From NCBI GenBank assembly GCA_049324235.1, contig JBMOLJ010000017.1, positions 45,701 to 109,700 on the forward strand: a stretch of DNA of 64,000 nt, written 5' to 3'. Position numbers and translations under genes: made by a program. The notes beneath the pieces are model-generated. The model did no database searches. It was not told where the DNA came from and was given only the letters and a program-made list of their open reading frames with translations. Positions 24,040 to 45,162 of the stretch are shown piece after piece; within the stretch, counting starts at the first letter, position 1; each line of letters opens with the position of its first letter. Source of the DNA: Bacillota bacterium. GTDB taxonomy: Bacteria; Bacillota; Clostridia; Christensenellales; UBA1431.

Positions 24040-24044
24040 AACTG

Positions 24045-24076: not shown

Positions 24077-24102
24077 GAAAAAGCATTTTAAGGAGAGCAC
24101 AG

Positions 24103-24798: not shown

Positions 24799-24858
24799 CT
24801 GAACAAAAATTTGTCAACGATACAAAAGTGCCTGATAAATTGAATAGGAGGAATGGTT

Positions 24859-26415: not shown

Positions 26416-26438
26416 CTCGGCAAAATCAGTAATAGGTA

Positions 26439-26466
26439 TTGACATACGCGTATATATAATTATAGT
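26439..26466 (+). promoter_or_regulatory. Promoter of the RuBisCO-like protein gene
   Basis: TTGACA (26439-44), 16-nt spacer, TATAGT (26461-66). Confidence 0.55.
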
Positions 26467-26478
26467 ATAAAAAGCAGC

Positions 26479-26501
26479 ATTCAGTATTCTGAATAATGAA
26501 T
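26479..26501 (+). promoter_or_regulatory. 23-bp palindromic operator, copy 2
   Basis: ATTCAGTATTCTGAATAATGAAT, identical to 22342-22364. It lies 13 nt after the -10 and 23 nt before the RLP start codon. Confidence 0.7.
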
Positions 26502-26524
26502 TAATTGTTAAGGAGGAGCATGGT

Positions 26525-27841: not shown

Positions 27842-27851
27842 TGGGGGTTGG

Positions 27852-27889
27852 GAAAGCGTGTGCTTAACGTACACGCTTTCGCTTTCTTT
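27852..27889 (+). terminator. Intrinsic terminator after the RLP gene
   Basis: gaaagcgtgt-gcttaacgt-acacgctttc followed by gctttcttt. Confidence 0.7.
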
Positions 27890-28055
27890 GACGCATCAAA
27901 GCGCATAATGTATGGTTATAAAAGCGGCTATGTCGCAAACCTGAAATACTATATCAAAGAAATACGTATGAATTCCACCAATGTCAACGTGGCGATAACA
28001 TCCTGTTACGGCTAATCATTTAATATAGTACGACATCGATTTACATAAATGAAGG

Positions 28056-28084
28056 TTGCGGGACACGTCATAACTTGTTATACT
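28056..28084 (+). promoter_or_regulatory. Possible promoter of kinase 3
   Basis: TTGCGG, 17-nt spacer, TATACT. It lacks the palindromic operator seen at the other two promoters. Confidence 0.35.
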
Positions 28085-28194
28085 ACAAATAATCAAAACG
28101 ACATATCGGCAATCCCCATTTTCATATGAAGCATTGGCAGCGATAGCTCCGATAAATATATTTTCCCAAAAAAATAATACAGGAGGTTACTACA

Positions 28195-29715
28195 ATGGCG
28201 AAGTACATTCTTGGTATCGATGACGGGCTCACCAATTCCAAGGCGGTATTGTTCACGCTCGACGGAAAAGAACTGGGTTCCGCGAGCAGGCATTTTGAAG
28301 TGAGCAGCCCCAAACCCGGCTATGTTCAGGCCGATCCGGTTCAGCTTTGGGAGAACACCGCGGACTGCATCAAGGAGGTTATTGAAAAGACCGGGGTTGA
28401 CCCTGCTGAAATCGGTGCGATCGGCGCTACCGGATTCGGAAATGGCGCTGTCTTTATCGCAGCCGACGGGTCTCCCGCGTATGCTGCTTTTGGCTCGAAC
28501 GACGGCCGTGCCGTCGATATAGCGCAAAGGCTGAACGATTCGGGTGCGGGCGCTGAGATTTTCAAGATCAACGCGACGGGCGCCGGGTCGTGGCAGCCCT
28601 TGACCCAGGCGCTCTGGCTGAAAGAAAACGAACCCGAGGCGTATGCCAAAATCGATTGGCTCTGCCAGTGCAAAGACTGGATCAATTTCAAGCTTACCGG
28701 TAACCGGATGACAGAAAAGAATGACGTTTCGGGCGCCGGATATATCGATTTTTCCACGGGTGAATACAACAAAGAAATATTCTCGCTGTACGGTGTGCCT
28801 GAACTGGCCGATAAGGTTGCCCCCATGGCGGAGTTCAGCCACTCGATCGTCGGTACTGTCAACGCAGAGGCTGCAAAACGCACAGGCCTCAAGGAAGGGA
28901 CGCCGGTCGGCGCAGGCATGATGGACGTTGCGGCCTGCAGCATCGGAACCGGCGTTATCGATGAAAAATATGCGTGCGTCATTGTGGGAACATGGTCCAT
29001 AAACCAGGTGATCATCGATCGTCCCCTCCCGAACATGACCTCCGTGCAGTTCTTTGATCTGCCCGGTAAAATTCTGAGCCTTTCCGGATCGGCAACTTCC
29101 GCTACAAACGTCGAATGGTTTGTCACCGAGTTCGGACAGGGATGTGCTGTGGAAGCCAAGGAGCGCGGGATATCGAAATACGATATAGTGACGGAAAAAG
29201 CCGCAACCATCCCCGCCGGCGGAACCAGCGTGCTGTATCTGCCGTTCATCGGCATGCCCAACGTCCATGCACGCGGACGCGCAGGCTTCTCCAACATTGC
29301 CATGGGCCATACGTTTGCCGACCTGGCGCGCGCCCTGTTTGAAGGGATCACCTTCGAGCACAAGCGCCACATCGATATCATCAAGAGCCAGGGAGCATCC
29401 GTCACGGCTGTCCGTCTGGCAGGCGGCGGAGCGAAGAGTCCGTTCTGGAGCCAGATGTTTGCCGATATCCTCGAAGTGCCGGTCGAAGTGGTCGGGGTTG
29501 CAGAACTCGGAGCGCTTGGTACGGCCATTGCCGCGGCTCTCGGCGCCGGAATCTACAAAGACTATGACGAGGCGCTCGGGAAGGCGGTTGAAATCAAGAA
29601 GACGTTCTATCCCATCGCCGAAAACACCAAGGCATATATGAACCGTTACAAGAGCTGGCAGGCTTTGGTGCAAACGATGATCGCCGGTTGGGATAAGGGT
29701 GGAATCGAACCGTAA
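28195..29715 (+). CDS. FGGY-family carbohydrate kinase (paralog 3), L-xylulose/3-keto-L-gulonate kinase (LyxK)-like
   Basis: Motifs [40 protein letters not shown] (compare E. coli LyxK WLKEHEPERYAQIG...DYLRWCLTG, as I recall it), [10 protein letters not shown] and [29 protein letters not shown]. Confidence 0.85.
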
Positions 29716-29744
29716 GCAAGGTGCTATTGCTGGAATCCTGGCTG

Positions 29745-29773
29745 GGCCGCCGTAACAAACACGGCGGCCTTTT
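29745..29773 (+). terminator. Intrinsic terminator after kinase 3
   Basis: ggccgccgt-aacaaac-acggcggcc followed by ttttgcg. Confidence 0.8.
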
Positions 29774-29902
29774 GCGTAGGGCTTTTCATATACAGCCCTC
29801 ACCACACACGGGGAATGATTCGTGCGGCGTTTTGACAGCAAGGACATATATGTTATAATGGACAATAGATGAATTTGCAAATGAGAAGGAAAAAATCACA
29901 GT

Positions 29903-30835
29903 ATGACTATGAAATTACTGACCAAACAGGGCGAGATCGTTGCAAAGCTGGCAAGACAGCTTCTTACGGTTTCACCCGGGTATCGCCTGCCCAGCGTAAG
30001 CGATTACTGTAACATGTTTTCCGCGGGCGCCGGCACTGTGCACGCCGCCTTGCGCACGCTTACAAATTCCGGGGCGATTGAGCTGGAGATTCATGGTCAT
30101 CAGGGGACGGTAATTACGGGTCTCAACCGCATGATCCTTTGGAAATTCAGCCTGAACACGCTGTTTTACGGAAGTATGCCCCTGCCGTACACATCAAGGC
30201 TGCAGGGCATGGCTACCGCGATATACGAGCAGTTTGAGGAAGCGGGCATCCCGTTCAGCCTTGCATATGTGCGGGGCGGCCGCATGCGCATCCAGAGGCT
30301 GCTGGACAAACACACGGATTTTGCCGTCTGCTCCCGACTTACCGCCAGGCTTGCGCGAAAAGAGTATCCGGAGCTTTTTACGGTGATGGATTTTGGGCAC
30401 GAAAGCTATCTCACCCACAGCATGCTGGTTTTCTCAAAACCAGGCATCACCGCCATTGAGGACGGCATGCGCGTAGGCGTTGACGAATCCTCCTATGACC
30501 ATCCGGAGCTGGTAAAGGTTGCCAGCCGCGGCAAAAACGTGACGTTCGTACCGCAAAGCTATAACCAGATCATATCCAAGATACGAAAAGGCGAAATTGA
30601 CGCTACGGTATGGAGCCTTGATGAAATCGAGGAAAAGTATCCGGGGCTGAACATGGTGCCCGCTGAAAACTCGGAAGAAATGAAATCCATTACCTATGAG
30701 AGCGCCTGCGCGGTCATACTCATCCGCGAGGATACGAAGTTCTGCGCGTCTATTCTGCGCGAGGTGCTTGATCTGGAAAAACTCAGCAGGATACAAAAAG
30801 AGGTCATGGACGGGCACAAGACGCCGTCATATTAA
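29903..30835 (+). CDS. YhfZ-type transcriptional regulator (GntR-like winged HTH plus a periplasmic-binding-protein-like C-terminal domain)
   Basis: The N-terminal region LPSVSDYCNMFSAGAGTVHAALRTLTNSGAIELEIHGHQGTVI is a GntR-like wHTH. The roughly 230-aa C-terminal domain has an alternating beta-alpha pattern, as in E. coli YhfZ (family assignment from memory, not from a search). Confidence 0.6.
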   Translation: MTMKLLTKQGEIVAKLARQLLTVSPGYRLPSVSDYCNMFSAGAGTVHAALRTLTNSGAIELEIHGHQGTVITGLNRMILWKFSLNTLFYGSMPLPYTSRLQGMATAIYEQFEEAGIPFSLAYVRGGRMRIQRLLDKHTDFAVCSRLTARLARKEYPELFTVMDFGHESYLTHSMLVFSKPGITAIEDGMRVGVDESSYDHPELVKVASRGKNVTFVPQSYNQIISKIRKGEIDATVWSLDEIEEKYPGLNMVPAENSEEMKSITYESACAVILIREDTKFCASILREVLDLEKLSRIQKEVMDGHKTPSY

Positions 30836-31051: not shown

Positions 31052-32542
31052 ATGGCGGAGAATACGAACAGACTGGGTTACCTGATGGAAATGCTGGATA
31101 TTTCGGGCAAGGAATTGGCGCAGGCGCTGACCGTCGATGCAACGACGGTCAGCAAATGGAAGAACAACCAGCGCAAGCTGACATACAAATCAAAGTATAC
31201 CCGGAAAATCGCAGGGTACTTCCTTAACAGCGCAATGCAGAGCAAGCGCGGGAAGATCACCGCCCTGCTCACAGCATACATGCCGGAGCTGAATATTGGC
31301 AGCGAGCATCAGCTCGTCGATGCGCTATGCCTTTGGCTGACCGAAAAGGGAACCGAACCGCCGGTGATGGTCGGGAGCACATCCGTAAACAGGTTTGCCC
31401 CTGAAAACGGCTATGTCGCCAACGTAAGGGTCTATACCGGCTATAAAGGGATAATGGAGGCGCTGGCGACATTCTGGGAATACACATTAACGCTTCCGTA
31501 CGGACAGGAAATACTCCTTGCAGATTACAGGGATATCAATTTTGACGAACAGGACCCGTCCGACATCGTCCGCATGATGAAGTTTTTCATTGACGCCGCA
31601 GAATACGGGCATACGATAAAGATCATCGACTGCGCTACGGATGTATTCAGGCCTTATGTGGCCATATTCCGCTGGCTGCCGATGTATCTTTCGGAAAATG
31701 TTCAAGTCTGGCGCTATCAGGATTTCATGAAGAGGGAGACCCGCATGAGCACCTTTGTATTGCCGGGGGAAATAGTGCTTAGCAGCTTTGCGGTTGACAC
31801 GTTGCCGGGAGTGCACCACAGCATGATATTTCATGACAGGGATACCGTCCGTTTCATGGAAGACAGCGTGCGTGCGATTCTGGCAAACTCCAAAAAAATG
31901 ATAGAGACGATTAAAGCCGCGGATGTATTGCGAATGCTGGAGATACTCGACGGCCATCTGAAGTCGCGGCAGCTCACGTACATGCTCAACCCCGTCCCTA
32001 CATTCAGGAATATGCCAATAAGACTGCTCAGGGAGATACTCGAAGAAAACGGAGTGGAGGAAGGCATCATTAGCATATGCTTGGAGGCAAACCGGAGAAC
32101 GCGCGCGGTCAGGGACCGGTGCAGATATATACAGATTTACGATCTGGACGCTATGGAGGCCCGGGTGCACAGCGACTTTATTGTCGATTACGACCTGTCG
32201 GCCATATGCGGCAAAAGGATAACGGTTCCGAAAGCATGCTATAAAAGGCATTTGGAATACCTGCTGGGCATCAAAAGCTCGGAAAACTATTCCATGACAA
32301 TGACATCGTTTTCAGCGCTCGGGCTGCTGTCCACCACGATAAGCATCATCGTCCAGGATGACAGCCTGGTCGTGGCCTGGGATCCGGAGCGGTATCCACG
32401 GAGGATGTACTGCATGGACCTTCAGGTGATAAACGGTTTTTATACGTATATCGAGGACCTTTGGAAAGCGATACCTCCTATTTGCAAGGATGACGGCTGG
32501 AAGTGCAAACAGCTCAACAGAATGATACAGATGCTGACATGA
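31052..32542 (+). CDS. XRE-family HTH regulator with a large uncharacterised C-terminal domain
   Basis: The N-terminal region LGYLMEMLDISGKELAQALTVDATTVSKWKNNQRK is a Cro/C1-type HTH. I could not assign the remaining roughly 430 aa. Confidence 0.7.
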   Translation: MAENTNRLGYLMEMLDISGKELAQALTVDATTVSKWKNNQRKLTYKSKYTRKIAGYFLNSAMQSKRGKITALLTAYMPELNIGSEHQLVDALCLWLTEKGTEPPVMVGSTSVNRFAPENGYVANVRVYTGYKGIMEALATFWEYTLTLPYGQEILLADYRDINFDEQDPSDIVRMMKFFIDAAEYGHTIKIIDCATDVFRPYVAIFRWLPMYLSENVQVWRYQDFMKRETRMSTFVLPGEIVLSSFAVDTLPGVHHSMIFHDRDTVRFMEDSVRAILANSKKMIETIKAADVLRMLEILDGHLKSRQLTYMLNPVPTFRNMPIRLLREILEENGVEEGIISICLEANRRTRAVRDRCRYIQIYDLDAMEARVHSDFIVDYDLSAICGKRITVPKACYKRHLEYLLGIKSSENYSMTMTSFSALGLLSTTISIIVQDDSLVVAWDPERYPRRMYCMDLQVINGFYTYIEDLWKAIPPICKDDGWKCKQLNRMIQMLT

Positions 32543-32580
32543 TTGGCGAAAAATTGGCATAAAAAATTAAAATAAATATA

Positions 32581-32609
32581 TTGACAATACGTTGGCATGA
32601 GTTTATACT
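32581..32609 (+). promoter_or_regulatory. Promoter of the amine-utilisation-like operon
   Basis: TTGACA (32581-86), 17-nt spacer, TATACT (32604-09). Confidence 0.65.
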
Positions 32610-32654
32610 GTCTGTAATCACTGAGGGAATTAGAAAAAGCAAAAAACGGCAATG

Positions 32655-32729
32655 GCGTCTTTGGAGCAGAAGCTCCCAAAGGCGCTTTAATTGTTTACAA
32701 GGGCGTAAAAACACATTACGCCCTTTTCC
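32655..32729 (+). promoter_or_regulatory. Leader with a 13-bp hairpin followed by an intrinsic terminator (candidate attenuator or riboswitch of unknown class)
   Basis: Hairpin gcgtctttggagc-agaa-gctc(c)caaaggcgc (32655-85), then aagggcgtaa-aaacaca-ttacgccctt followed by ttcctatt (32699-32729). This lies about 85 nt upstream of the permease ATG. Confidence 0.5.
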
Positions 32730-32814
32730 TATTGGTTACGATCCTTCCAATGGCGGGAGATTTTAATCATATACACATTATTTTCAACCATCATGAAGGA
32801 TTGGAGGTTTTTTT

Positions 32815-34245
32815 ATGGCAGGGACGAAGAAATTAGGCCTGTTCAGTGCGGTAAGTACATGCGTCGGGCTGATTGTAGCGACGAGCTGTCTGGTATCTTT
32901 GGGAACAGGGTCCGGTTTGGCGGGGGCCGGGTTTGCTATACCGTTGGCGATAGCGGTTGTCCTTAACATGTTTATTGCGTTATCATTCGGAGAACTTCAT
33001 GCCATGATGCCCAATGTTACCGGAGGCATGGGACAATATACCGCGACGGCGCTGGGACCTGTTCCGTCCATTATTTCGAACATATCGGCGTACGTGTTCT
33101 GCATGGCGTTTGCGGCAAGCGCGGAGGCCGTGATGTGCGGACTTGTTTTTACGCAGGCCTTTGCGCCGGACTGGAACCCGTTGGTTGTGAGTACGGTGGT
33201 AACGCTGATACTGCTGGCAGCCAACTTCAGAGGGATCGACATGTTCGCAAGGATACAGAATGTGACCGTTACGCTGCTGATCGGCTCGCTGGCTGCGCTC
33301 GCGATCCTAAGCTTTTTCATGATTGCGCCCGGTCAGCCTGTGACTACGGTGGAAACCCCGGCGATTACCGGCTTTGGCGATCTCGCAGGCCTGGCCGCAA
33401 TCGGATTCTGGCTGTTTATCGGTGTTGAATTTGTAATACCGATTTCCAAGGAACTACGCAATCCCAAGAGGGACGTTTTGCTCGCTATGGTTATCGGCCT
33501 CGTCGTATTGTTTGTGGTACAGCTGCTCTTAGGGATCGGTATGACCAATTATGTTCCCCTTTCCGTACTTTCCTCGGAAGCCATGCCCCATATAGTGTTT
33601 GCGCAAAGCCTTCTGGGTGATGTGGGCAAGTACTGGATGGGAATTATTACGTTGCTTGCCGGCGTCAGTACGCTCAATACGGTGCTGGCCAGTTCGACCA
33701 GGATCACAGCAGGAATGGCGGAAGGCGGCATGCTTCCCAGGTTCTTTGCAAAGGAGAACAAAAAGGGAGTACCCTTTGGAGGCTTGCTCTTGCTTACCGG
33801 AAGCATACTGGGCATTGTCCTAACGGGCCTTGGGAACTCTGCTGACCTGATCACTATGATTCTCACAGGCTCCTGCTTCTGGCTTGTTTCCTATATTATT
33901 ACGCATGTTAACGTACTGGTCCTGAGAAGAAGGTATCCGCAGCGCGCGGCGGCGTGGAAGTTCAAGCTGTTTGGAATACCGCAGATAATAGGGATTATCG
34001 GCTGTGTGTATATGATTATCAACATCAGCCCGGATCCGGATGCCAAGACCATAATATTTACGGTATTCGGCATAGCGCTCGGGTTGCTCATTACCTATGC
34101 AACGGTCTGGACCAAGTTCGTTATGAAAAAGGGCATTTTTGAGCACGTTCCCATCGAGGCGGTCATTGCAGGAGGGCCGGTTGGCAGGGAAATGGATGAG
34201 CCGGAAACGCAGCCTGGTGTTGCCGCGGGCAAGAGCGCCATATAA
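32815..34245 (+). CDS. APC-superfamily amino acid/amine permease
   Basis: 476 aa with about 12 hydrophobic segments and an APC-type N-terminus (LGLFSAVSTCVGLIVATSCL). GGAGG RBS. Confidence 0.85.
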   Translation: MAGTKKLGLFSAVSTCVGLIVATSCLVSLGTGSGLAGAGFAIPLAIAVVLNMFIALSFGELHAMMPNVTGGMGQYTATALGPVPSIISNISAYVFCMAFAASAEAVMCGLVFTQAFAPDWNPLVVSTVVTLILLAANFRGIDMFARIQNVTVTLLIGSLAALAILSFFMIAPGQPVTTVETPAITGFGDLAGLAAIGFWLFIGVEFVIPISKELRNPKRDVLLAMVIGLVVLFVVQLLLGIGMTNYVPLSVLSSEAMPHIVFAQSLLGDVGKYWMGIITLLAGVSTLNTVLASSTRITAGMAEGGMLPRFFAKENKKGVPFGGLLLLTGSILGIVLTGLGNSADLITMILTGSCFWLVSYIITHVNVLVLRRRYPQRAAAWKFKLFGIPQIIGIIGCVYMIINISPDPDAKTIIFTVFGIALGLLITYATVWTKFVMKKGIFEHVPIEAVIAGGPVGREMDEPETQPGVAAGKSAI

Positions 34246-34268
34246 GCAGTTTAGAGGAGGTGGAAAAA

Positions 34269-35633
34269 GTGGTACTGGATATTTTAACGGGTGCGGAAAT
34301 GCTTACGCATGACGACGTAAAGCAACGGATAAAAGAACAGGATATCGAAATGATTCGGCTCGAGTACACGGACATCCTGGGCGTAAACCGGGGCAAAATG
34401 ATGCCGGCGGAGATGATCGATGAGGTATTCGAAAAAGGCATATGCTTCGGCGCGGGCACCTTGTGCATGGGCTTTAACAACAGCGTGGCCCTTAGCCAGG
34501 GATTTTCAGAGACCATAGATGATATGAAAGTCATTGCGGACCCGTCGACCTTCGTCGTACTGCCGCACGAGGATAAGACTGCACTCATCATAGGCGACCT
34601 GTATTATCTGGGAAAGCCCATGAATCAGTCTCCAAGAGTGTTTTTAAAGAAGATCGTTTGGGAGTACCATAAGCTGGGATTTGACCCCATCGCGGCAAGT
34701 GAAGTTGAGTTTTTCGTCTACAAAAAGCAGCCTGAAGGCGGGGTGGCTCCCTACACAAACCAGCTTGCAAACTGTTATACCAGCAATAAAAGGATCGATC
34801 CATTGGGATTTCTATCCAAGCTTACCAAGACGTTTAAAAACATGGATTTCAATGTGCTCTACATGAACCACGAGTATTATCCCGGCCAGTTTGAATACAA
34901 CTGGTCGCACGCAAAGGCCGTCCGCTGCGCCGATGAAACGGCGTTGTTCAAGAGCCTGAGCAAGGATATTGCGGACATGAACGACATGATGGTTACCTTT
35001 ATGGGCAAGCCCAAATTATCCGAAGGCGGGAGCGGCTGCCATTTCCATATTTCCCTCAACGATCTGGAAACAGGAAAAAACGTTTTCGGCGATGTGCAGA
35101 AGGATGACGGCATTGCGGACATCATGAAGCATTTTATCGGGGGAATCTGCAAGCACGCGCTGCCGCTGACGGCTTTCCTGTCGCCGACCGTCAACTGCTA
35201 CAAGCGGTACCAGCCCGATTCCTTCGCGCCTATCTATGTGGGCTGGGGCTATGACAACAGGACGACGTACATCCGCATCCCGCAGGAGCGCGGGCAGGCG
35301 ACACGCGTTGAGGTCCGCGCTGCAAGCGCGGCAACCAACCCTTATCTGGCCCTTGGAGGAATACTGGCCGCCGGACTGGATGGAATCGTAAACAGGATTG
35401 AGCCTCCCGGCGTGATAGAAGGGGACTTCTATCACGATAAAGAGCACGCGAAGGAAGTAGTGCCCCGGAGCCTGTTCAGGGCGATCTCGTTGCTGGAGGA
35501 GGACGAATGGTTCTGCGATTGCGTGAGCAGGGAACTGATCGATGCTTTTGTCAAGTTGAAGAACCTTGAGATCAGCGACTTTACCAAATTTGTTACGGAC
35601 TGGGAATGGAATACGTATTCGTACCATATTTGA
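34269..35633 (+). CDS. Glutamine synthetase-family ligase (gamma-glutamyl-amine synthetase-like; GmaS/PuuA-like)
   Basis: GS catalytic-domain motifs: EVEFFVY, GSGCHFHISL, NCYKRY, NRTTYIRIP, NPYLALGGILAAGLDG. I prefer GTG at 34269, 8 nt after GAGGAGG; the track start is 34260. Confidence 0.8.
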   Translation: MVLDILTGAEMLTHDDVKQRIKEQDIEMIRLEYTDILGVNRGKMMPAEMIDEVFEKGICFGAGTLCMGFNNSVALSQGFSETIDDMKVIADPSTFVVLPHEDKTALIIGDLYYLGKPMNQSPRVFLKKIVWEYHKLGFDPIAASEVEFFVYKKQPEGGVAPYTNQLANCYTSNKRIDPLGFLSKLTKTFKNMDFNVLYMNHEYYPGQFEYNWSHAKAVRCADETALFKSLSKDIADMNDMMVTFMGKPKLSEGGSGCHFHISLNDLETGKNVFGDVQKDDGIADIMKHFIGGICKHALPLTAFLSPTVNCYKRYQPDSFAPIYVGWGYDNRTTYIRIPQERGQATRVEVRAASAATNPYLALGGILAAGLDGIVNRIEPPGVIEGDFYHDKEHAKEVVPRSLFRAISLLEEDEWFCDCVSRELIDAFVKLKNLEISDFTKFVTDWEWNTYSYHI

Positions 35634-35660
35634 TGGATTTTAAGTGGAGGGGAAACGGAT

Positions 35661-36557
35661 ATGTGCGGCATAGCGGGCGTTATTTCAAAAACAAAAACGG
35701 ATATTGCACAGGGGCTGGTGTCCATGCTCGAGCTGATTCAGCACAGGGGGCCGGACGCAAGCGGCATCGCGGTATACGGGGGCAAAGACCACATCATCCT
35801 CAGAGCGACCATGAAAGGAAAACCCCTGTCGGCCTCGCTCATGGAAACGGTGGGGAAATACGCGACGGTACTTGGGCAGCAGATAGGAGACTGGAGCAGG
35901 CCGCTCATTTTCTCGGAAATGCGTCTCGAAATCCCCGAGGAGGATATCCCGTCGCTGCATGCGGCGATCAACAAAGTGCCCGGGCTTACCGTCCATTCCA
36001 TCGGAAAAGGGATGAAGGTATATAAAGAAGGCGGACCGGTAGCCAATCTCAAGGCGAACAACAGGATCGACGCGGTCTCTGCCACGCACGGCATTGGCCA
36101 CGTGCGGATGGCGACCGAAAGCGCGGAGGACATCAACGCGGCCCACCCGTTCGTTTCCCCGTTTTATCCCGGACTCTCCATCGTACACAACGGGCAGTTT
36201 ACGAACTATTTCAACATGCGCCGCTTCCTTGAAGCAAAGGGCGCTGTGTTTAAGACGATGAACGATTCGGAGGCCGCCAGCCACCTTATTGCCTATGCGA
36301 TGCGGGAAAACGGCGGGGACCTTCATGAGGCCCTGCAATATGCGCTCGATATGCTCGACGGCGTGTTCTGCATCATAGCGTCCACGGCAACGCAGATGGG
36401 GTTTGTAAAGGATAAGCTTGGCATAAAGCCCCTGCTGGTATTTGAAACCGATGAAATGGTCATGTTCGGCTCCGAGCAAATCGAGTTTACGGCGCTTTAT
36501 CACGATGTGTTTGCGGATGAAATGAGTCCCGGGGAGGTGAAGGTATGGAATATTTAG
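35661..36557 (+). CDS. Class-II (Ntn) glutamine amidotransferase, GltB-domain-1 / MgsA-like
   Basis: N-terminal MCGIAGV (catalytic Cys after Met removal), HRGPDASGIA, GHVRMAT, HNGQFTN. Confidence 0.85.
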   Translation: MCGIAGVISKTKTDIAQGLVSMLELIQHRGPDASGIAVYGGKDHIILRATMKGKPLSASLMETVGKYATVLGQQIGDWSRPLIFSEMRLEIPEEDIPSLHAAINKVPGLTVHSIGKGMKVYKEGGPVANLKANNRIDAVSATHGIGHVRMATESAEDINAAHPFVSPFYPGLSIVHNGQFTNYFNMRRFLEAKGAVFKTMNDSEAASHLIAYAMRENGGDLHEALQYALDMLDGVFCIIASTATQMGFVKDKLGIKPLLVFETDEMVMFGSEQIEFTALYHDVFADEMSPGEVKVWNI

Positions 36558-37270
36558 ATGCGGCAAATATGAAGCCCGGGGAGCTGAATGCAGCCATCAG
36601 GGATAGAATGGCCGAGGGCATAACGGAATTTACGGTAAAGAACGCGCATTCGATGCACAACATGTTCGCGGGACTGACCGGGGATTGCAGCATAAGGATC
36701 GAGGACAGTACCGGCCTGTATACCGCAAGTTTTATGGAAGGCCCCCGCGTCGTGGTAGACGGGAACGTGGGATGGTATGCGGGCGACGATATGATGGGCG
36801 GGGAACTGCTCATCAAAAAGAACACCGGATGCAACATAGGCGCATACATCAACGGCGGTACCATCGTCGTCTACGGGAGCACCGGCAGCCGGGTGGGCTA
36901 TGGCATGAAGGGCGGAACCATCATCGTATGCGGCAACGCGGGACGCTGGGCGGCCCAGATGTCCATGGGCGGAAGCCTGGTCGTGCTGGGAGAGATGGGG
37001 AGACAGATCGGCGAATCAATGTATAGGGGGGCCATATTCACATGTGATCCGCAGGCGGGCGATAAGCTGGGCGGAAACGTGTTTTTGGACGAGATAACAG
37101 TACAGGAAGCCAGTGCGTTATCCAGGCTTTTTAAGAAGTATGAGATCGATGCGCATCCTGAAGCATTCAAAGTCGTCCGTCCGGTTTCATCGGGAAGGCA
37201 TACATACGTTTTGTTCAAACCGGAACTTGCGCCTGAAGGGGCGAAAAAGCATGCGGCGGCGAAGGGGTGA
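36545..37270 (+). CDS. GXGXG-motif protein, glutamate synthase C-terminal beta-helix domain / MgsB-like
   Basis: Repeated G-x-x-G-x-x-G beta-helix turns: DGNVGWYAGDDMMGGELLIKKNTGCNIGAYINGGTIVVYGSTGSRVGYGMKGGTIIVCGNAG. It overlaps the upstream stop by 13 nt. Confidence 0.85.
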   Translation: MEYLDAANMKPGELNAAIRDRMAEGITEFTVKNAHSMHNMFAGLTGDCSIRIEDSTGLYTASFMEGPRVVVDGNVGWYAGDDMMGGELLIKKNTGCNIGAYINGGTIVVYGSTGSRVGYGMKGGTIIVCGNAGRWAAQMSMGGSLVVLGEMGRQIGESMYRGAIFTCDPQAGDKLGGNVFLDEITVQEASALSRLFKKYEIDAHPEAFKVVRPVSSGRHTYVLFKPELAPEGAKKHAAAKG

Positions 37271-37275
37271 GACAG

Positions 37276-38583
37276 ATGAGCGATACAAAAAGAATAACAG
37301 AGCCGGTAAACGCCCAGCACGGGGTGTGGAGCAAAGAGACGCTTGCCGAGATCGATTATAAGGCAGGCGCCGGAAAACACAGGATCAGGGGCTGCGCAAC
37401 GCCCAGGCGCATGCCGGGGTTTGACGACCTCATGATCCTGCCGGGGCAGCTCACGCGCATGACGATCGACACCTACCGCGAGGACTGTGAAACGCGGACC
37501 GTTCTGGGAAAGCGCTTCGCGAAAAAGCCGCTGATTATCGAAACGCCCGTGATGATTGCTGGAATGTCCTACGGCGCGCTGAGCAAGGAGGCAAAGATCG
37601 CCCTTGCAAAAGCGTCGTCCATCGTCGGGACGGTAATAAGCAACGGCGAGGGCGGCATACTGCCCGAGGAGCTAGAACATTCCTACAGGCAGTCGATACA
37701 GGTGCTGGCCAGCCGCATGGGCTTTACAAAAAGGAACCTTGAAGTGGCCGACATGCTCGAATTCCTGTACGGCATCGGCGCAAAGCCCGGCCTTTCAGGC
37801 CATCTCATGGGCAGCAAGATCACCGCGGAGATCGCAGAGCAGAGGAAGATACCGGTAGGGATCGACCTGCACAGCCACCCGAGAAGCGGCGACTCCTTCG
37901 GGGCCGACGATATGGTCATCAAGATGGAGCAGATGCGCGAGCTGACCAACTATGAAGCGCCGATATTTGTAAAGATCGCCGCGGGCCGCGTGCGCGAGGA
38001 CATTAAGATCGCGGTGAAGCTGGGCGTGGATGGTATCATACTCGACGGCTGCCAGGCGGGGACGGGAGCGGCGCCGGTGATGGCGGCGGATCACCTGGGG
38101 ATACCAGCGATGCCCGCATTGGTGCAGGCAGTCCGCACGCTGGAGGAAATCGGCCTGAAAGATGAGGTGAGCCTAATCATATCGGGCGGCGTCAAGGACG
38201 GGGCGGATCTCGCGAAGGCGCTTGCCATAGGCGCCGACGCCGTCGCCATAGGCACTGCCGCCATGGTGGCCATGGGATGCAGGGTGTGCATGCGCTGCCA
38301 TACGGGCAACTGCAGCTTCGGAATCGGCACGCAGGACCCGGAGCAGAGGAAAAATCTGGATATCGACGCCGCCGCCCAGAGGGTGGCCAACTATATCAGC
38401 GCGATGACGGCCGAAGCCGTGCTGCTTGCCAAGGCGGCCGGAAAATCAAAGCTCAAAAACCTTGAGAGAGAGGACCTGCGCGCGCTGACGCTGGAGACCG
38501 CGGCCATGACCGGCATACCGCTCGTCGGGAGCGATCTGGTGATCGGCGAGGGATTCGGGTTTACCGCAAACAATAAAATCTGA
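37276..38583 (+). CDS. FMN-binding glutamate synthase-family protein, GltB-domain-2 / MgsC-like
   Basis: Motifs IAGMSYGALS, ILDGCQAGTGAAP, ISGGVKDGADLAKALAIGADAVAIGTAAMVAMGCRVCMRCHTGNCSFGIGTQDPE. ATG at 37276 after AAGGGG. Confidence 0.85.
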   Translation: MSDTKRITEPVNAQHGVWSKETLAEIDYKAGAGKHRIRGCATPRRMPGFDDLMILPGQLTRMTIDTYREDCETRTVLGKRFAKKPLIIETPVMIAGMSYGALSKEAKIALAKASSIVGTVISNGEGGILPEELEHSYRQSIQVLASRMGFTKRNLEVADMLEFLYGIGAKPGLSGHLMGSKITAEIAEQRKIPVGIDLHSHPRSGDSFGADDMVIKMEQMRELTNYEAPIFVKIAAGRVREDIKIAVKLGVDGIILDGCQAGTGAAPVMAADHLGIPAMPALVQAVRTLEEIGLKDEVSLIISGGVKDGADLAKALAIGADAVAIGTAAMVAMGCRVCMRCHTGNCSFGIGTQDPEQRKNLDIDAAAQRVANYISAMTAEAVLLAKAAGKSKLKNLEREDLRALTLETAAMTGIPLVGSDLVIGEGFGFTANNKI

Positions 38584-38602
38584 TGGTCGGAGTGTGTCGT
38601 TT

Positions 38603-38914
38603 ATGAGGATACAGCAGCATCCAATTCTGAAAACATTCGATAAAGGAAAACGCGTCGCCTTTGAGTTTGACGGCAAGGCAATGGAGGGATACGAGGGCGA
38701 ACCGGTCGCCGCCGCATTGCGGGCGGCAGGCGTGATGACCCACCGTCATACCACGCGTTTTGGCAATCCACGGGGAATCTTCTGCGCGATAGGCAGGTGT
38801 ACGGACTGTGTGATGGTGGTGGATGGGAAACCCAATATGAGAACCTGCGTAACGCCGCTTCGCGAGGGTATGAAGGTCGAGACACAATTTGGAGCGGGTG
38901 CGAAAAAGGGGTAG
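38603..38914 (+). CDS. Small (2Fe-2S)-binding subunit, HcnA / sarcosine-oxidase-alpha N-terminal-like
   Basis: Motifs FEFDGKAMEGYEGEPVAAAL and GIFCAIGRCTDCVMVVDGKPNMRTCVT. ATG at 38603 after GGAGTG; the track GTG is at 38594. Confidence 0.75.
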   Translation: MRIQQHPILKTFDKGKRVAFEFDGKAMEGYEGEPVAAALRAAGVMTHRHTTRFGNPRGIFCAIGRCTDCVMVVDGKPNMRTCVTPLREGMKVETQFGAGAKKG

Positions 38915-38920
38915 GCGTTT

Positions 38921-40525
38921 ATGGACAGATATGAGCTAATCGTGATCGGAGCAGGTCCGGCCGGGCTGTGTGCGGCAATCGAGGCCGCATCCTCGGGTAT
39001 GAAGACTATAGTTTTCGATGAAAACGCGCGTCCGGGCGGACAGCTTTTCAAGCAGATACATAAATTCTTTGGTTCAAAAGAGCACAGGGCAAAAAAAAGA
39101 GGTTTCAGGATCGGTGAGGAGCTTTTAAAACAGGCGGAGGATGCGGGAGTCGATGTCAGGCTCAACGCTACTGTTATGGGGATATTCCAGAATAAAGAAA
39201 TTACCGTGATGACCGGTGACCATATAGAGCATTTCAAGGGGGATAACATCGTTGTTGCGACCGGGGCGTCCGAGAACATGGTCGCTTTCCCGGGCTGGAC
39301 CCTGCCGGGCGTAATGGGGGCGGGCGCGGCGCAGACACTGATGAACCTGCACGGCATTAAACCCGGGGAAAGAGTTTTGATGGTAGGCTCGGGAAACGTC
39401 GGCTTGGTCGTGAGTTTTCAGCTTTTACAGGCTGGCAGCGAGGTTGCGGCGATTATCGACGCCGCGCCGCGTATCGGGGGATACGGTGTACACGCGGCTA
39501 AAGTCGTACGCACGGGCGTCCCCGTGTATCTGTCGCATACGGTCATTCAGGCCCAAGGCGAAGACCGTGTGACCGGCGCCGTCATCGGCGAGGTGGATAA
39601 GAACTGGCAGATTATCGCGGGTTCTGAAAAGCATCTTGAGGTGGACGCCATATGCCTGGCGGTAGGGCTTTCGCCGATGTCCCAGCTTACCCGGATGACC
39701 GGCTGCAAAATGGCCGATTCGCCTGCGAAGGGCGGGCTGGTGCCGGTTTGCAACACCTTCGGGGAAACCTCGGTGCAGGGAATATTCTGCGCCGGTGACG
39801 TTTCCGGGATTGAGGAAGCAAGCTCGGCCATGATTCAGGGGTATATCGCAGGCGCAGCCGCCGCAAGGCGCAGCGGATACATAACGGATGAAGTGTTTCT
39901 GAAGAAGGAGCAAAAGCTGTATGCGTCCCTTGGGCAGTTAAGAGGGGGCATGTTCGGCGGCAAAAACAAGGGACGAACGGATTTGACGCATACGGATGAG
40001 GGCGTTCCCCTGTCTGAAACGCTGTTGAAAAAGGGCTATATCGGTGAAACGGAGATATTGAATTTTCCGGGGGCAAACGGATATAAGAAAAAAGGTATTC
40101 ATCCGGTGATCGAGTGCACCCAGAATATCCCGTGCAATCCGTGCCAGGATGCCTGCGCCAAAGGATGCATCGTCGTCGGCAAGAACATTACAAGCCTGCC
40201 GGTGGTCTCGGAACAGGCCCAGTGCACCGGTTGCGGCATGTGCGTGGCTTCCTGCCCGGGTCAGGCCATTTTTCTCATCGACGAAGATTATGCCAAAGGG
40301 TTCTCAGCCGTTTCGTTGCCGTATGAATTGCTGCCGCTCCCCAAAACAGGGGACAGGGGCGTTGCGCTGGACAGAAGCGGCAAAAGCCTTTGCCCGGCTG
40401 AGATTGTGGCCGTGAAAACGGCAAAAGCCATGGACGAGACAGCCATATTGACGATGAAGGTTCCCGCCGAGATGTCGTCAAAGGCGCGGTTTTTCAGGCT
40501 GGAAGGGGTGTCGGATGATGAATGA
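38921..40525 (+). CDS. FAD/NAD(P)-binding pyridine-nucleotide-disulfide-type oxidoreductase subunit (HcnB/OoxA/LhpE-like) with a C-terminal ferredoxin-like Cys clusters
   Basis: Two Rossmann motifs, VIGAGPAGLCAAIEAA and MVGSGNVGLVVSF. The C-terminus has CNPCQDACAKGC and CTGCGMCVASCPGQA (4Fe-4S-type). Confidence 0.75.
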   Translation: MDRYELIVIGAGPAGLCAAIEAASSGMKTIVFDENARPGGQLFKQIHKFFGSKEHRAKKRGFRIGEELLKQAEDAGVDVRLNATVMGIFQNKEITVMTGDHIEHFKGDNIVVATGASENMVAFPGWTLPGVMGAGAAQTLMNLHGIKPGERVLMVGSGNVGLVVSFQLLQAGSEVAAIIDAAPRIGGYGVHAAKVVRTGVPVYLSHTVIQAQGEDRVTGAVIGEVDKNWQIIAGSEKHLEVDAICLAVGLSPMSQLTRMTGCKMADSPAKGGLVPVCNTFGETSVQGIFCAGDVSGIEEASSAMIQGYIAGAAAARRSGYITDEVFLKKEQKLYASLGQLRGGMFGGKNKGRTDLTHTDEGVPLSETLLKKGYIGETEILNFPGANGYKKKGIHPVIECTQNIPCNPCQDACAKGCIVVGKNITSLPVVSEQAQCTGCGMCVASCPGQAIFLIDEDYAKGFSAVSLPYELLPLPKTGDRGVALDRSGKSLCPAEIVAVKTAKAMDETAILTMKVPAEMSSKARFFRLEGVSDDE

Positions 40526-40838
40526 AATATTGGACCGCAGCCTTGATCTGGGGGAGTTTGTCCCGCAGCCCGATGACGGTATGATCATTTGCCGCTGCGA
40601 GGAGATTACCAAGGGCGAGATACGCAAAGCCGTACACGACGGCATGCGGAACCTGACGGAAATCAAGCGGTATCTGCGTGCGGGCATGGGGCTTTGCCAG
40701 GGCCTTTCCTGCAGCCGTCTCGTACGGGCCATCGTCGCAAAGGAACTCGGGGTTTCTCCGGCAAAACTGGAGCTGTCATCGCCCCGCTCTCCTGCACGCC
40801 CGGTAGAGATGCGTGTCTATGCAAACGAATTGAGGTGA
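40515..40838 (+). CDS. BFD-like (2Fe-2S)-binding protein
   Basis: CRCEEITKGEIRKAV...GMGLCQGLSC matches the BFD-like [2Fe-2S] pattern. It overlaps the upstream gene by 11 nt. Confidence 0.75.
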   Translation: MMNEILDRSLDLGEFVPQPDDGMIICRCEEITKGEIRKAVHDGMRNLTEIKRYLRAGMGLCQGLSCSRLVRAIVAKELGVSPAKLELSSPRSPARPVEMRVYANELR

Positions 40839-40843
40839 AGGCA

Positions 40844-41968
40844 ATGACGAAGACAGCCGGGGTCATCATCATCGGCGGCGGTGTGATCGGATGCGCGGCG
40901 GCGTATTATCTCGCTTTAAAAGGCGTAAAAAGTATCGTCCTGGAAAAAAACGAAATAGGGCATGGCGGATCAAGCAAGAACGGCGGCGGTGTAAGGCAGT
41001 CCGCGCGGGACAACAGGGAACTGCCGCTTGCCATGTTCGGCGCCGAATGCCTGTGGCCAGGGCTGTCCGACGAGCTGGGCGTTGATGTGGAGTACTGCAA
41101 AAAAGGAAACCTGCGCCTCGCAAAGACAGAAGAGCATATCAGGATTCTTGAAAAACTCGTGGAGAACAGCCGCGCCGGGGGCTTGAAGGTGCAGATGATA
41201 ACCGGTGACGAAGCAAGGGAAATCTGCCCCTATATGTCCGAAGAGGTGATCGGCGCGAGCTGGTGTCCGACCGACGGGCATGCCAATCCCATGCGCACAA
41301 CGCTCGGCTTTTACAAAAGGGCGCGCGAACTCGGGGCGCGCTTTATCACGGGTGAAAATGTGTTGGAAATAAAAAAAATTAAGGGCCGGGCGCGGCAGGT
41401 GATAACAAACGCGAACGTGTATGAGGGGGAGACCGTTATCCTGGCTGCAGGATACGAGTCCAGAAGCATTGCCAATACCGTGGGGATAGACGTGCCGATG
41501 CAGCGGGTGCTGCTTGAAGCGCTGGTGACCGAGCCCCAGCCAAAAATGTTTGAGCAGATGCTTGGTACGGCCGCAGCCGACTTTTACGGACATCAGGCAA
41601 AGCACGGATCGTTTGTGTTCGGGGGTTCGGGCGGCCTTGAACCGTATATCTCCGAAGTGCCGGAACCGGCCACAACCAGCACGACCGCGCCTTCCGTTTG
41701 CAGAGCCATCATAAAATACTTTCCGGTTTTGAAGGAAGCGAAAATCGTACGGTCATGGGCGGGTTGGATAGACGATTGCGCCGACCATGTTCCGGTCATC
41801 AGCAGGGTTGACGAGGTGCCCGGGCTTATACTCGCCTGTGGCTTTTCGGGGCACGGCTTTGGAATATCCCCGGTGGTCGGGCTGCTGCTGAGCGAGCTTG
41901 CGACCGGTGTGAGGACATCCCTGTACCTGAACGCGTTCAGGTACGACCGTTTTGCGGCAAGAGCATAA
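40844..41968 (+). CDS. FAD-dependent amine/imino-acid oxidoreductase subunit (sarcosine oxidase beta / HcnC / OoxB / LhpB-like, DAO family)
   Basis: N-terminal GVIIIGGGVIGCAAAYYLA and C-terminal FSGHGFGISPVVG. ATG at 40844 after GAGGTGAAGG. The track ORF carries an 85-codon upstream extension in the same frame. Confidence 0.8.
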   Translation: MTKTAGVIIIGGGVIGCAAAYYLALKGVKSIVLEKNEIGHGGSSKNGGGVRQSARDNRELPLAMFGAECLWPGLSDELGVDVEYCKKGNLRLAKTEEHIRILEKLVENSRAGGLKVQMITGDEAREICPYMSEEVIGASWCPTDGHANPMRTTLGFYKRARELGARFITGENVLEIKKIKGRARQVITNANVYEGETVILAAGYESRSIANTVGIDVPMQRVLLEALVTEPQPKMFEQMLGTAAADFYGHQAKHGSFVFGGSGGLEPYISEVPEPATTSTTAPSVCRAIIKYFPVLKEAKIVRSWAGWIDDCADHVPVISRVDEVPGLILACGFSGHGFGISPVVGLLLSELATGVRTSLYLNAFRYDRFAARA

Positions 41969-41986
41969 TAGAAAGGGGAATATAGA

Positions 41987-42391
41987 ATGGAGTTTACGAG
42001 AGTCAATTATTCATCAGGTGCGCCATTGGAGGAGAAAGTCGGTTACAGCCGTGTGGTGAAAGCCGGTCCCTTTGTTTTTGTGGGAGGCACGACGTCTGTT
42101 TTACCCGATGGAAGCGTATACGGAGAGAACGACCCGTATGCGCAGACGAAGTATGTCCTGGAAAAGCTTATCGGGCTGATCGGGGAGGCCGGAGCCAAAC
42201 CGGAGGAGGTCGTACGGGTCAAGGTATATGCCACGGACATGAAAATGTGCGGCGAAATCACCCGGGCGTATTCCGAATTCTTTAAAGAAATAAAGCCGTT
42301 GTGTACGGTCGTAGGCACCTCGGCGCTCAACCGTCCGTCGCAGCTCGTTGAAATTGAGATGGACGCGATCATCGGCGCAGCCGCAGGATGA
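41987..42391 (+). CDS. RidA/YjgF-family reactive-imine deaminase-like protein
   Basis: 134 aa with the YjgF/Rid pattern (YSRVVKAGPFVFVGGTTS..., VRVKVYATDM, VEIEMDAI). Confidence 0.75.
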   Translation: MEFTRVNYSSGAPLEEKVGYSRVVKAGPFVFVGGTTSVLPDGSVYGENDPYAQTKYVLEKLIGLIGEAGAKPEEVVRVKVYATDMKMCGEITRAYSEFFKEIKPLCTVVGTSALNRPSQLVEIEMDAIIGAAAG

Positions 42392-44817: not shown

Positions 44818-45162
44818 TGCAGCCTGAGAGTGCAAAAACATTGCCGTCACCGGCAAGATAACACATTGTGATTAGAATCTGCATTCCTCCCCAAAATCCT
44901 CCTTGATGCATCAAATCTTTCACTTGACAGAGATCTTTCCTCAATGTTAAAATTCCTTATCTCTTTGCACTGCATGTACTACAGTACAAACTGATCAGGC
45001 GATGGGCTTATGCCGGTCCATGCAGCCGGGCCAAAAGTGGCAGCAGGTCAAATCTTACATGCCTGTGGGACAGAACAATGTTTCCGCAGGTGTTTTTTTA
45101 TCCGCGGAAACATGATAAATGCATTGCCCTAGAGCTATCATAATGAATGCCGGAGAGGCATC

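Follow-up and report, generated by a model that had tools for sequence, protein, structure and literature searches.

A conserved operon of anaerobic bacteria as a possible iron-sulfur counterpart of the aerobic N-methylglutamate pathway

Genes and features of the locus

The subject of this study is a ten-gene operon in a stretch of 64,000 nucleotides (here called the window) from a metagenome-assembled genome of a Bacillota bacterium of the Christensenellales (UBA1431; assembly GCA_049324235.1, contig JBMOLJ010000017.1, positions 45,701 to 109,700 of the forward strand), which a first-pass annotation made from the letters alone had likened to the N-methylglutamate (NMG) pathway of amine oxidation. 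The ten tightly packed or overlapping plus-strand open reading frames (ORFs) described in that annotation are present, with spacings of -13 to +27 nt between genes, and every domain that it had named was recovered with Pfam at E-values of 1e-15 to 1e-95. In gene order, these domains are AA_permease_2, Gln-synt_C, GATase_6/7, GXGXG, Glu_synthase, Fer2_4, Pyr_redox_2 plus Fer4, Fer2_BFD/SO_alpha_A3, DAO and Ribonuc_L-PSP. None of the ten proteins reaches an NCBIfam equivalog cut-off, and none can therefore be named by homology alone. The features of the locus are as follows.

31052-32542, plus strand: candidate operon regulator, 496 aa, with an N-terminal XRE-type helix-turn-helix and two phospholipase-D-fold domains
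32542-32558, no strand: candidate operator, direct repeat ATTGGC-N5-ATTGGC immediately 5' of the -35 hexamer
32581-32609, plus strand: sigma-70-like promoter TTGACA-17-TATACT, matching at 11 of 12 positions
32654-32686 and 32699-32725, plus strand: attenuator-like leader with two tandem hairpins (-20.7 and -13.6 kcal/mol), each followed by a T-rich tract
32815-34245, plus strand: APC-superfamily permease, 476 aa (AA_permease_2, 3.6e-38)
34260-35633, plus strand: glutamine synthetase (GS)-family ligase, predicted gamma-glutamyl-amine synthetase (Gln-synt_C, 8.5e-91)
35661-36557, plus strand: N-terminal nucleophile (Ntn)-type, class II amidotransferase, MgsA/GlxB-like (GATase_6, 9.3e-18), beginning MCGIAG with an N-terminal Cys
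36545-37270, plus strand: GXGXG beta-helix subunit, MgsB/GlxC-like (GXGXG, 2.1e-16), overlapping the genes on both sides
37267-38583, plus strand: FMN-binding GltB-like subunit (Glu_synthase, 5.1e-95) with a C-x2-C-x2-C-x4-C iron-sulfur (Fe-S) motif
38594-38914, plus strand: small 2Fe-2S protein equivalent to the SoxA N-terminal domain (Fer2_4, 1.8e-30), with a C-x4-C-x2-C...C motif
38921-40525, plus strand: FAD/NAD(H) oxidoreductase (alpha subunit) equivalent to the middle of SoxA plus a C-terminal two-cluster 4Fe-4S domain (Pyr_redox_2, 3.7e-34; Fer4 matches)
40515-40838, plus strand: BFD-like 2Fe-2S protein corresponding to domain A3 of SoxA (Fer2_BFD, 7.4e-15; SO_alpha_A3, 2.6e-11)
40847-41968, plus strand: SoxB-like beta subunit, an FAD dehydrogenase with secondary amines as its predicted substrates (DAO, 7.4e-70)
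41987-42391, plus strand: Rid-family protein without the catalytic Arg (Ribonuc_L-PSP, 1.6e-21)

The DAO gene most likely starts at the ATG at 40847; the start called mechanically, at 40589, would make it overlap the whole BFD gene.

Conservation of the operon

Conservation in related genomes had been proposed as a check on the first-pass reading, and the nine enzyme genes indeed keep their order in at least 16 different loci of Bacillota that are complete and in two Desulfovibrionales genomes; further loci are broken off by contig ends. The conserved nine-gene order is found in Desulfoscipio gibsoniae, Anaeromicropila populeti, Halanaerobium hydrogeniformans, Fusibacter paucivorans, Intestinibacillus, Syntrophomonas, Candidatus Clostridium eludens and several other Bacillota genomes. 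A strain of Clostridium beijerinckii (GCA_002009885.1) carries the nine genes with ligase, FMN and DAO proteins 73-83% identical to those of the window, and in Desulfobacterota orthologues of all nine core proteins occur at 43-71% identity. The shared gene order across these genomes argues for a conserved unit and not a chance run, and this unit includes an eleventh gene, that of the conserved upstream regulator.

Some related loci, denoted here by L and a number, carry additional genes. In a sub-group (L001:8139-9911, L013, L020 and L021), genes for a DUF3156 protein and for a WD40 beta-propeller protein, the latter apparently with a signal peptide, lie between the permease and ligase genes. 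In C. beijerinckii the operon adjoins genes for class-III aminotransferase-fold, APH-type kinase and short-chain dehydrogenase proteins (L091:6546-9754), a trio that we take to resemble amino-alcohol kinase/phospho-lyase pathways; in D. gibsoniae, too, a class-III aminotransferase gene lies upstream (L001:3449-4789).

The ligase belongs to a clade of its own

The best NCBIfam match of the ligase is TIGR03105, the GlnT/GmaS type, at 320.8 bits against a cut-off of 469.6, and the PuuA model NF045547 (GGputSyn) gives 291.5 bits against a cut-off of 650. Among solved proteins, true type I-alpha GS score 237 bits, and GmaS, the nearest solved relative that is not a GS, scores 197-203 bits. This difference suggested that the ligase is a true GS, an assignment that the residues and the tree reject. 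We aligned the ligase with 80 relatives taken from genomes, GlnA of Escherichia coli and Bacillus subtilis, PuuA of E. coli and two proteins of the GlnT/GmaS type. Residues D50, S53, Y179, H210 and E327 are all kept in each of the 40 true GS in this alignment, whereas in the operon-linked ligases (45 of 45) D50 is replaced by G, A or C, Y179 by C, V, A or I and E327 by F, S53 is variable, and H210 is N except for S or A in two loci. The window ligase has G, T, C, N and F, respectively, at the positions of D50, S53, Y179, H210 and E327. In a neighbor-joining tree the operon-linked ligases form their own branch, apart from the 40 true GS, from GmaS and from PuuA. The call of a GS-family ligase that does not use ammonia is thus supported, and the clustering with bona fide GS that the first-pass annotation had said would speak against its reading is not seen.

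The pocket residues Y147, E179, E186, N188 and K30' of GmaS are kept in the ligase, and a 'CY' motif at the Y179 position is common to both; the six-residue flap insertion of GmaS is absent. Judged by its residues and its branch, the ligase is a putative non-ammonia enzyme of the GS family with a clade of its own, neither a GS nor a GmaS, and its natural reading is that of a predicted gamma-glutamyl-amine synthetase.

A GltB-like module with iron-sulfur ligands

The order of the amidase, GXGXG and FMN genes is that found beside glnT on a Sinorhizobium plasmid and also that of a classical NMG cluster on an Acinetobacter plasmid, where these genes are accompanied by a sarcosine-oxidase-type gene with a folate domain and by Amt transporters. 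The three proteins are 30-34%, 30-34% and 44-45% identical, respectively, to the proteobacterial MgsA/GlxB, MgsB/GlxC and MgsC/GlxD proteins (L006, L007), and the FMN subunit is closer to MgsC/GlxD (45%, 329 bits) than to E. coli GltB (34%, 136 bits). In every FMN subunit of the window family there is a C-x2-C-x2-C-x4-C motif, in which the first, third and fourth Cys align exactly with C1102, C1108 and C1113 of E. coli GltB, which are the [3Fe-4S] ligands of that enzyme, and in which there is one extra Cys. The classical MgsC/GlxD proteins, of which only two were compared (L006 and L007), have no Cys at this site and a 16-residue insert instead. The earlier statement that the operon contains exactly the MgsABC parts is therefore upheld as to gene order and similarity, but not for the FMN subunit, which keeps the Fe-S ligands lost in MgsC.

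A search of 1.8 billion cluster representatives gave a single representative more than 50% identical to the FMN subunit, which marks the family as compact. Identities of 48-50% are reached by the relatives that come next, namely archaeal-type GltB-like proteins fused to a ferredoxin and a type that bears an insert but retains the Cys. Most of the 50%-identity representatives in the GltB-like FMN family keep three to four Cys. The idea that retention of the Fe-S Cys is unique to the window family was accordingly rejected, the Cys-less MgsC/GlxD proteins being the exception in the wider family. In L044 (Chloroflexi) and L045 (Desulfovibrio) the FMN subunit additionally has an N-terminal CxxCxxCxxxCP ferredoxin motif. 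Classical N-methylglutamate synthase is redox-neutral. The GltB Fe-S ligands kept in the FMN subunit imply a redox-linked reaction, and we infer that this subunit would exchange electrons with a partner and act in the manner of glutamate synthase, by reductive amination of 2-oxoglutarate.

A flavin/iron-sulfur dehydrogenase split over four genes

The three non-DAO proteins encoded behind the GltB-like genes are colinear on the soxA profile, on which they cover positions 12-99, 171-487 and 523-596 of 996, and by this alignment they are the predicted equivalents of a split N-terminal half of SoxA. Together these pieces have full Cys motifs for two 2Fe-2S and two 4Fe-4S sites. Throughout the family the alpha subunit conserves two motifs, GAGPAG...DE and GSGNVG...(I/V)D, which predict binding of FAD and NAD(H). 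The alpha subunit scores 139 bits against soxA and 45-47 bits against GltD-type models, its best solved relatives are 2gag_A and 1y56_A, and there is no GltD in the operon. The best NCBIfam match of the beta (DAO) subunit is soxB, at 155 bits against a cut-off of 529, and its best solved relative is the beta subunit of the Pyrococcus L-proline dehydrogenase (1y56_B, 161 bits), followed by glycine and sarcosine oxidases; these closest solved relatives all act on secondary or primary amines.

A GCV_T folate domain was matched in none of the operon proteins, the soxA matches ending at position 596 of 996, and Pfam found no SoxD or SoxG domains among them, the small proteins being Fer2_4 and BFD/A3. 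These data bear out the proposal that the dehydrogenase is of the HcnABC/OoxAB/LhpBEF type and not of the classical MgdABCD type.

The Rid protein and the permease

The last gene of the operon, that of the Rid protein, is strictly conserved in this place. Its product scores 56 bits against TIGR00004 (cut-off 106) and has 3i7t, an uncharacterized protein, as its best solved relative. At the position of the carboxylate-binding Arg105 the window protein has Cys, and all 16 of the 16 family members have Cys or Phe. The classical imino-acid role, and with it the suggestion that RidA quenches the imine intermediate, thus does not follow.

The permease is co-located in 22 related loci. It approaches no NCBIfam equivalog, and for this reason a substrate read from the permease was rejected. 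The transporters of orthologous loci are either APC permeases or LIV-type (branched-chain amino acid) ABC transporters, not Amt.

Regulator, operator and leader

The 496-aa regulator matches no family in Pfam and belongs to a family with 34 clusters among 5.8 billion proteins. In 12 related loci and in C. beijerinckii, the gene immediately preceding that of the permease or ligase encodes a homologue, and in every case examined a member of this family adjoined the operon. The AlphaFold model of the regulator (predicted local distance difference test, pLDDT, 89) matches phospholipase D (PLD)-family proteins and the sensor domain of TrmB/TrmBL2; the predicted PLD-type fold would be the one used as a ligand sensor in TrmB regulators. 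The direct repeat ATTGGC-N5-ATTGGC has a single exact match in the whole window. The same repeat is present in the spacer between regulator and permease in L003, L005/L016, L012 and L019, one-mismatch versions are present in L010 and L011, and when the spacers of related loci are aligned, TTGACA keeps its position.

The single promoter and leader that had been placed ahead of the operon are confirmed as a sigma-70-like promoter and, behind it, a structured leader some 205 nt long (32612-32814). The whole leader folds with z = -6.6, and one helix pairs with the ribosome-binding site. A hairpin and T tract lie 35-75 nt past the promoter in all nine of the nine regulator-linked loci, with differing sequences, and the 5' arm often begins CAAAGGCG. 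Rfam gave no family match on the leader and nothing near any gathering score; the leader may be an undescribed attenuator or riboswitch. No GlnR/TnrA box was found at the promoter, and the lone match in the window, at 44199, is unrelated. The lack of this box together with the dedicated regulator favors specific over general nitrogen control, and from these sequence features control looks substrate-specific.

Aldehyde-handling genes and microcompartments in orthologous loci

In Desulfobacterota the nine orthologous genes are interleaved with microcompartment shell genes (L092:2638-19884 and L093:2688-21103; also L029-L048). The front seven genes are directly followed by BMC-domain, EutN, PduS-like and EutJ-like genes, and the shell set comprises two BMC-H proteins, EutN, a 183-residue BMC-domain protein and two CsoS1D-type proteins. 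In one genome each of Syntrophobacteraceae and Desulfatiglandales the genes for BFD/A3, DAO, an RpiR regulator, an aldehyde dehydrogenase and Rid lie behind or among the shell genes, and the BFD protein of Desulfobacterota has an N-terminal extension of about 115 residues. A Desulfobacterota variant without DAO, BFD and Rid, in which the alpha and Fer2_4 proteins would serve the FMN subunit alone, was ruled out, as these genes are found 6 kb further on. The Desulfobacterota aldehyde dehydrogenase passes the EutE/PduP-type model with 519 bits against a cut-off of 403. The locus looks like an uncatalogued metabolosome, of which the DAO/BFD dehydrogenase would be the aldehyde-forming enzyme.

Other lineages pair the system with different enzymes. 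In the proteobacterial locus L041:1966-8688 and the Chloroflexi locus L044:9848-21324, the DAO protein is fused to a 4Fe-4S domain and its gene is followed by one for an aldehyde:ferredoxin oxidoreductase of the tungsten type, the two copies being 70% identical. In a locus of a Desulfovibrio metagenome-assembled genome (L045:8582-19984), the genes that come after the permease, the ligase and the three GltB-like genes encode, in order, EutN, a BMC protein, a member of the Octopine_DH family, a protein resembling acetylating aldehyde dehydrogenases, a second BMC protein and a PduS-like protein. Homologues of the flavin dehydrogenase genes were not found in this locus, where the place of the flavin/Fe-S complex seems to be taken by an opine-type dehydrogenase that uses NAD(P). 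A PuuD-like class-I amidase gene adjoins the ligase gene in six loci, and in Fusibacter a GGACT-domain gene adjoins the operon.

By gene association, these loci point to gamma-glutamyl amides, to a putative secondary-amine (opine-like) intermediate and to an aldehyde product, the last having also been proposed in the first-pass annotation. CoA-acylating aldehyde dehydrogenases and microcompartment shells would serve aldehydes of C2 or larger, and the presence of both suggests that the aldehyde is C2 or larger, at least in the lineages that bear microcompartments. In a 2021 catalogue of microcompartments, MIC2 is the only type with a GS-like gene (22 loci in Proteobacteria and Actinobacteria; PMC8217296, supplementary file 6), and no type in that catalogue has Glu_synthase or GXGXG (PMC8217296). 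In function, MIC2 may be distantly related to what is described here.

Other genes and riboregulators in the window

The region upstream of the operon (22504-30835) looks like a separate sugar or RuBisCO-like-protein pathway cluster. It contains three FGGY-family sugar kinase genes (22504-24039, 24853-26415 and 28195-29715), a gene for a RuBisCO-like protein (26525-27841) and a gene for a YhfZ-type regulator (29903-30835). A T-box leader (10850-11073), a fluoride riboswitch (12610-12672) and a NiCo riboswitch (44981-45075) in the window score above the Rfam gathering thresholds; the last of these closely precedes the gene for a P-type cation ATPase (45163-47706).

Discussion

Combining the residue patterns with the gene order and the genes associated with orthologous loci, we consider it moderately probable that the operon encodes an inducible, iron-sulfur counterpart of the aerobic NMG pathway, with which strict anaerobes would take the nitrogen, and perhaps also the carbon, from a primary amine. 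We base every catalytic step on domains, residue patterns, cofactor motifs, gene order and associated genes. In total, these would generate the following circuit: (i) the APC permease would import the primary amine, (ii) the GS-like ligase would, with ATP, join the amine to the gamma-carboxyl group of glutamate, (iii) the Ntn amidase would free the amine inside the GXGXG/FMN complex, in which the FMN/Fe-S subunit would condense it with 2-oxoglutarate and reduce the imine to an N-substituted glutamate, as glutamate synthase does with ammonia, and (iv) the SoxB-like FAD subunit together with the split SoxA-like subunits would oxidize this secondary amine on the alkyl side, giving glutamate and an aldehyde. 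Expression would be controlled by the upstream helix-turn-helix/PLD-fold regulator and the terminator-type leader. From the pathway drawn in the first-pass annotation we thus retain the ligase, the order with the synthase, the type of the dehydrogenase and the aldehyde product; the quenching by Rid, the GmaS residues and the exact identity with MgsC are given up.

With less confidence, we suggest that the electrons of the dehydrogenase return via the Fe-S subunits to the synthase step or exchange with NAD(H). The net conversion would then be that of amine, 2-oxoglutarate and ATP to aldehyde and glutamate with no external electron acceptor, and ATP hydrolysis at the ligase step would presumably drive this redox-neutral pathway. 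Such recycling fits an obligate anaerobe and the cofactor content of the proteins. A bolder and more doubtful version of this idea, which we put forward tentatively, is that the operon encodes a machine for amine:2-oxoglutarate aminotransfer that is redox-neutral and independent of pyridoxal phosphate (PLP), with electrons passed straight back to the synthase, and that this machine is the core of the uncatalogued Desulfobacterota microcompartment. In this version the Fe-S/FMN enzyme would take gamma-glutamyl-amine in place of glutamine to form an opine-like N-substituted glutamate, a SoxAB/opine-oxidase-like Fe-S flavoprotein would split this product, and an obligate fermenter could do without an external acceptor.

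Several observations weigh against the proposed counterpart of the NMG pathway. In the structure paper on GmaS, Asp177 is the proposed catalytic base and is strictly conserved in GmaS homologues (PMC7948447). The corresponding position is Asn, invariant across the ligase family (N203 in the protein denoted A3), and Q175 and W300 of GmaS are replaced by Tyr and Phe in the ligase; the earlier likening of the ligase to GmaS fails at these residues, and the amine used by the ligase cannot be read from GmaS. The comparison of the FMN subunit with GltB and MgsC, which had been proposed as a check, favors MgsC over E. coli GltB, but archaeal-type GltB-like proteins fused to Fer4 are 49-50% identical and so as close as MgsC, with the result that similarity alone does not fix the reaction. 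Furthermore, L041 has the ligase and the dehydrogenase and, within its 13-kb contig piece, no GltB-like gene, which fits schemes in which the dehydrogenase acts on a gamma-glutamyl compound. In the window no aldehyde-consuming gene lies in or beside the operon, and the Rid protein has no assigned role in the scheme. The electron recycling between the redox modules, which we hold with less confidence, is drawn from cofactor content and gene adjacency only, and in the literature we found no biochemical or expression data on any member of the family.

These points leave room for other readings. The operon could be a true functional orthologue of the NMG pathway, by which anaerobes would use methylamine as a nitrogen source via gamma-glutamylmethylamide and N-methylglutamate with release of glutamate and formaldehyde. 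The gene-for-gene parallel with gmaS-mgsABC-mgdABCD, the best match of the ligase to TIGR03105 and the shared 'CY' motif argue for this, as do the methylamine-rich habitats from which several hosts come. We nevertheless find it rather improbable: GCV_T and genes for folate or formaldehyde are missing from all of the about 45 loci, Asp177 of GmaS is replaced, and orthologous loci add a CoA-acylating aldehyde dehydrogenase and microcompartment shells. The inferred C2-or-larger aldehyde, the lack of a folate function and the APC permease or LIV-type ABC transporter in place of the Amt of the classical cluster make methylamine unlikely, and the amine is probably another one. Alternatively, the order of the steps could differ, such that the dehydrogenase dealkylates the gamma-glutamyl-alkylamide to glutamine and aldehyde and the GltB-like proteins form an archaeal-type glutamate synthase that uses the electrons. 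The net stoichiometry would be the same and the route redox-balanced, with glutamine and 2-oxoglutarate giving two glutamates, and the glutamate synthase Fe-S ligands in the FMN subunit, its closeness to the Fer4-fused proteins and the gene content of L041, in which the ligase and dehydrogenase are joined by an aldehyde:ferredoxin oxidoreductase, are all consistent with it. SoxB/DAO-family flavoenzymes, however, oxidize amines and not amide nitrogens, and we know of no precedent for N-dealkylation of an amide in this family; since amines are the substrates of all the solved proteins nearest to the beta subunit and the GltB-like step comes before oxidation in the aerobic precedent, we regard this order as unlikely.

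To about the same degree unlikely, in our view, is an anaerobic Puu-like route for a diamine, polyamine or basic amino acid such as putrescine, cadaverine or lysine, in which gamma-glutamylation of one amino group would serve as protection, the free distal amine would be oxidized to an aldehyde and the GltB-like module would later recover the nitrogen. L041, with its ligase, dehydrogenase and aldehyde:ferredoxin oxidoreductase, mirrors PuuA/PuuB/PuuC, the permease weakly resembles transporters for basic amino acids and polyamines, and the PuuD-like amidases, the GGACT-domain gene beside the Fusibacter operon and the match to the GGputSyn profile point in the same direction; yet that match, at 291 bits, is far under the cut-off of 650, the ligase groups apart from PuuA, the operon of the window has neither an aldehyde dehydrogenase nor PuuD, and the tightly conserved GltB-like genes would be given no clear role. 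Ordinary ammonium assimilation by GS and glutamate synthase with an unusual electron-donor module would explain why true GS I-alpha enzymes are the best solved relatives of the ligase by raw score and why the Fe-S ligands are kept in the FMN subunit. It is hard to credit, given that no member of the ligase family retains the residues that GS has at its ammonium site and flap, that the ligase clade stands apart from the 40 true GS, that a SoxB-like amine dehydrogenase, a dedicated permease and a regulator are part of the module, and that no GlnR/TnrA box is present at the promoter.

The proposed counterpart of the NMG pathway thus has to be placed among known systems. With the pathway of GmaS, MgsABC and MgdABCD it shares the same eight enzyme roles and the same logic, i.e. 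a GS-like ligase without the ammonium residues, the order Ntn-GXGXG-FMN and a SoxB-like dehydrogenase with SoxA-related partners. It differs in that the ligase has Asn for Asp177 and Phe for Trp300 and lacks the flap insertion, in that the FMN subunit keeps four Fe-S Cys absent from MgsC, and in that the SoxA equivalent is divided over three proteins with real Fe-S sites, an added 4Fe-4S domain and no folate domain; moreover, there is no SoxD or SoxG, the permease is of the APC type and not Amt, and the hosts are strict anaerobes. The dehydrogenase resembles the archaeal L-proline dehydrogenase (1y56), HcnABC, the opine oxidase OoxAB and the D-hydroxyproline dehydrogenase LhpBEF in combining a beta subunit of the DAO type with Pyr_redox_2 (alpha) and small Fer2_4 subunits, a likeness that we presume for the last three by name, only 1y56 having been aligned. 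These enzymes all act on secondary or alpha-amino groups. Unlike them, the complex of the operon is fixed together with a GS-like ligase and a split GltB-like enzyme and has BFD/A3 as a separate protein.

Glutamate synthase, both GltB/GltD and the archaeal type that is split and ferredoxin-fused, has the same Ntn, GXGXG and FMN domains and the [3Fe-4S] Cys triad; in the operon, by contrast, the partner ligase would be unable to make glutamine, GltD is replaced by a SoxA-like NAD/FAD/Fe-S partner, there is a fourth Cys, and amine dehydrogenase genes are linked. The E. coli Puu pathway (PuuA-D) likewise has a GS-like gamma-glutamyl-amine ligase in which the flap Glu is replaced by an aromatic residue, DAO-family oxidation and an aldehyde product, and PuuD-like amidases occur in some related loci; however, the ligase of the operon belongs to another clade, the dehydrogenase is an Fe-S enzyme made up of several subunits, the operon includes GltB-like genes, and the window has no PuuC or PuuD. 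In the saccharopine route of lysine catabolism, an amine and 2-oxoglutarate are joined by reduction to an N-substituted glutamate, which is then oxidized at the opposite side of the nitrogen to glutamate and an aldehyde. The chemistry proposed here is the same, as an analogy of mechanism only: the saccharopine route uses unrelated NAD(P)-dependent dehydrogenases and has no ATP-dependent gamma-glutamylation and no Fe-S/flavin subunits.

Literature searches for an NMG-like pathway in anaerobes, for gamma-glutamylation in anaerobes and for a microcompartment linked to GS and glutamate synthase found nothing relevant. We have not found this system described in the searchable literature; in it, the logic of the NMG pathway appears rebuilt with a distinct ligase clade, an Fe-S synthase subunit and an Oox/Hcn-type dehydrogenase.

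The routes by which anaerobes are known to break down simple amines depend on corrinoid methyltransferases, B12-dependent lyases and PLP transaminases. If the proposed pathway is true, the operon would add an ATP-driven amine route through glutamate that apparently needs no corrinoid, B12 or PLP and that is widespread in fermenters, syntrophs and sulfate reducers of gut, digester and subsurface habitats. Among its carriers, C. beijerinckii, D. gibsoniae DSM 7213, H. hydrogeniformans and F. paucivorans DSM 12116 are in culture, and the version of the operon embedded in a microcompartment points to a possible new metabolosome signature enzyme. With an FMN subunit that is MgsC-like in sequence and has a glutamate synthase-like Fe-S site, the operon bridges glutamate synthase and N-methylglutamate synthase, and this subunit could show how the redox-neutral aerobic enzyme originated.

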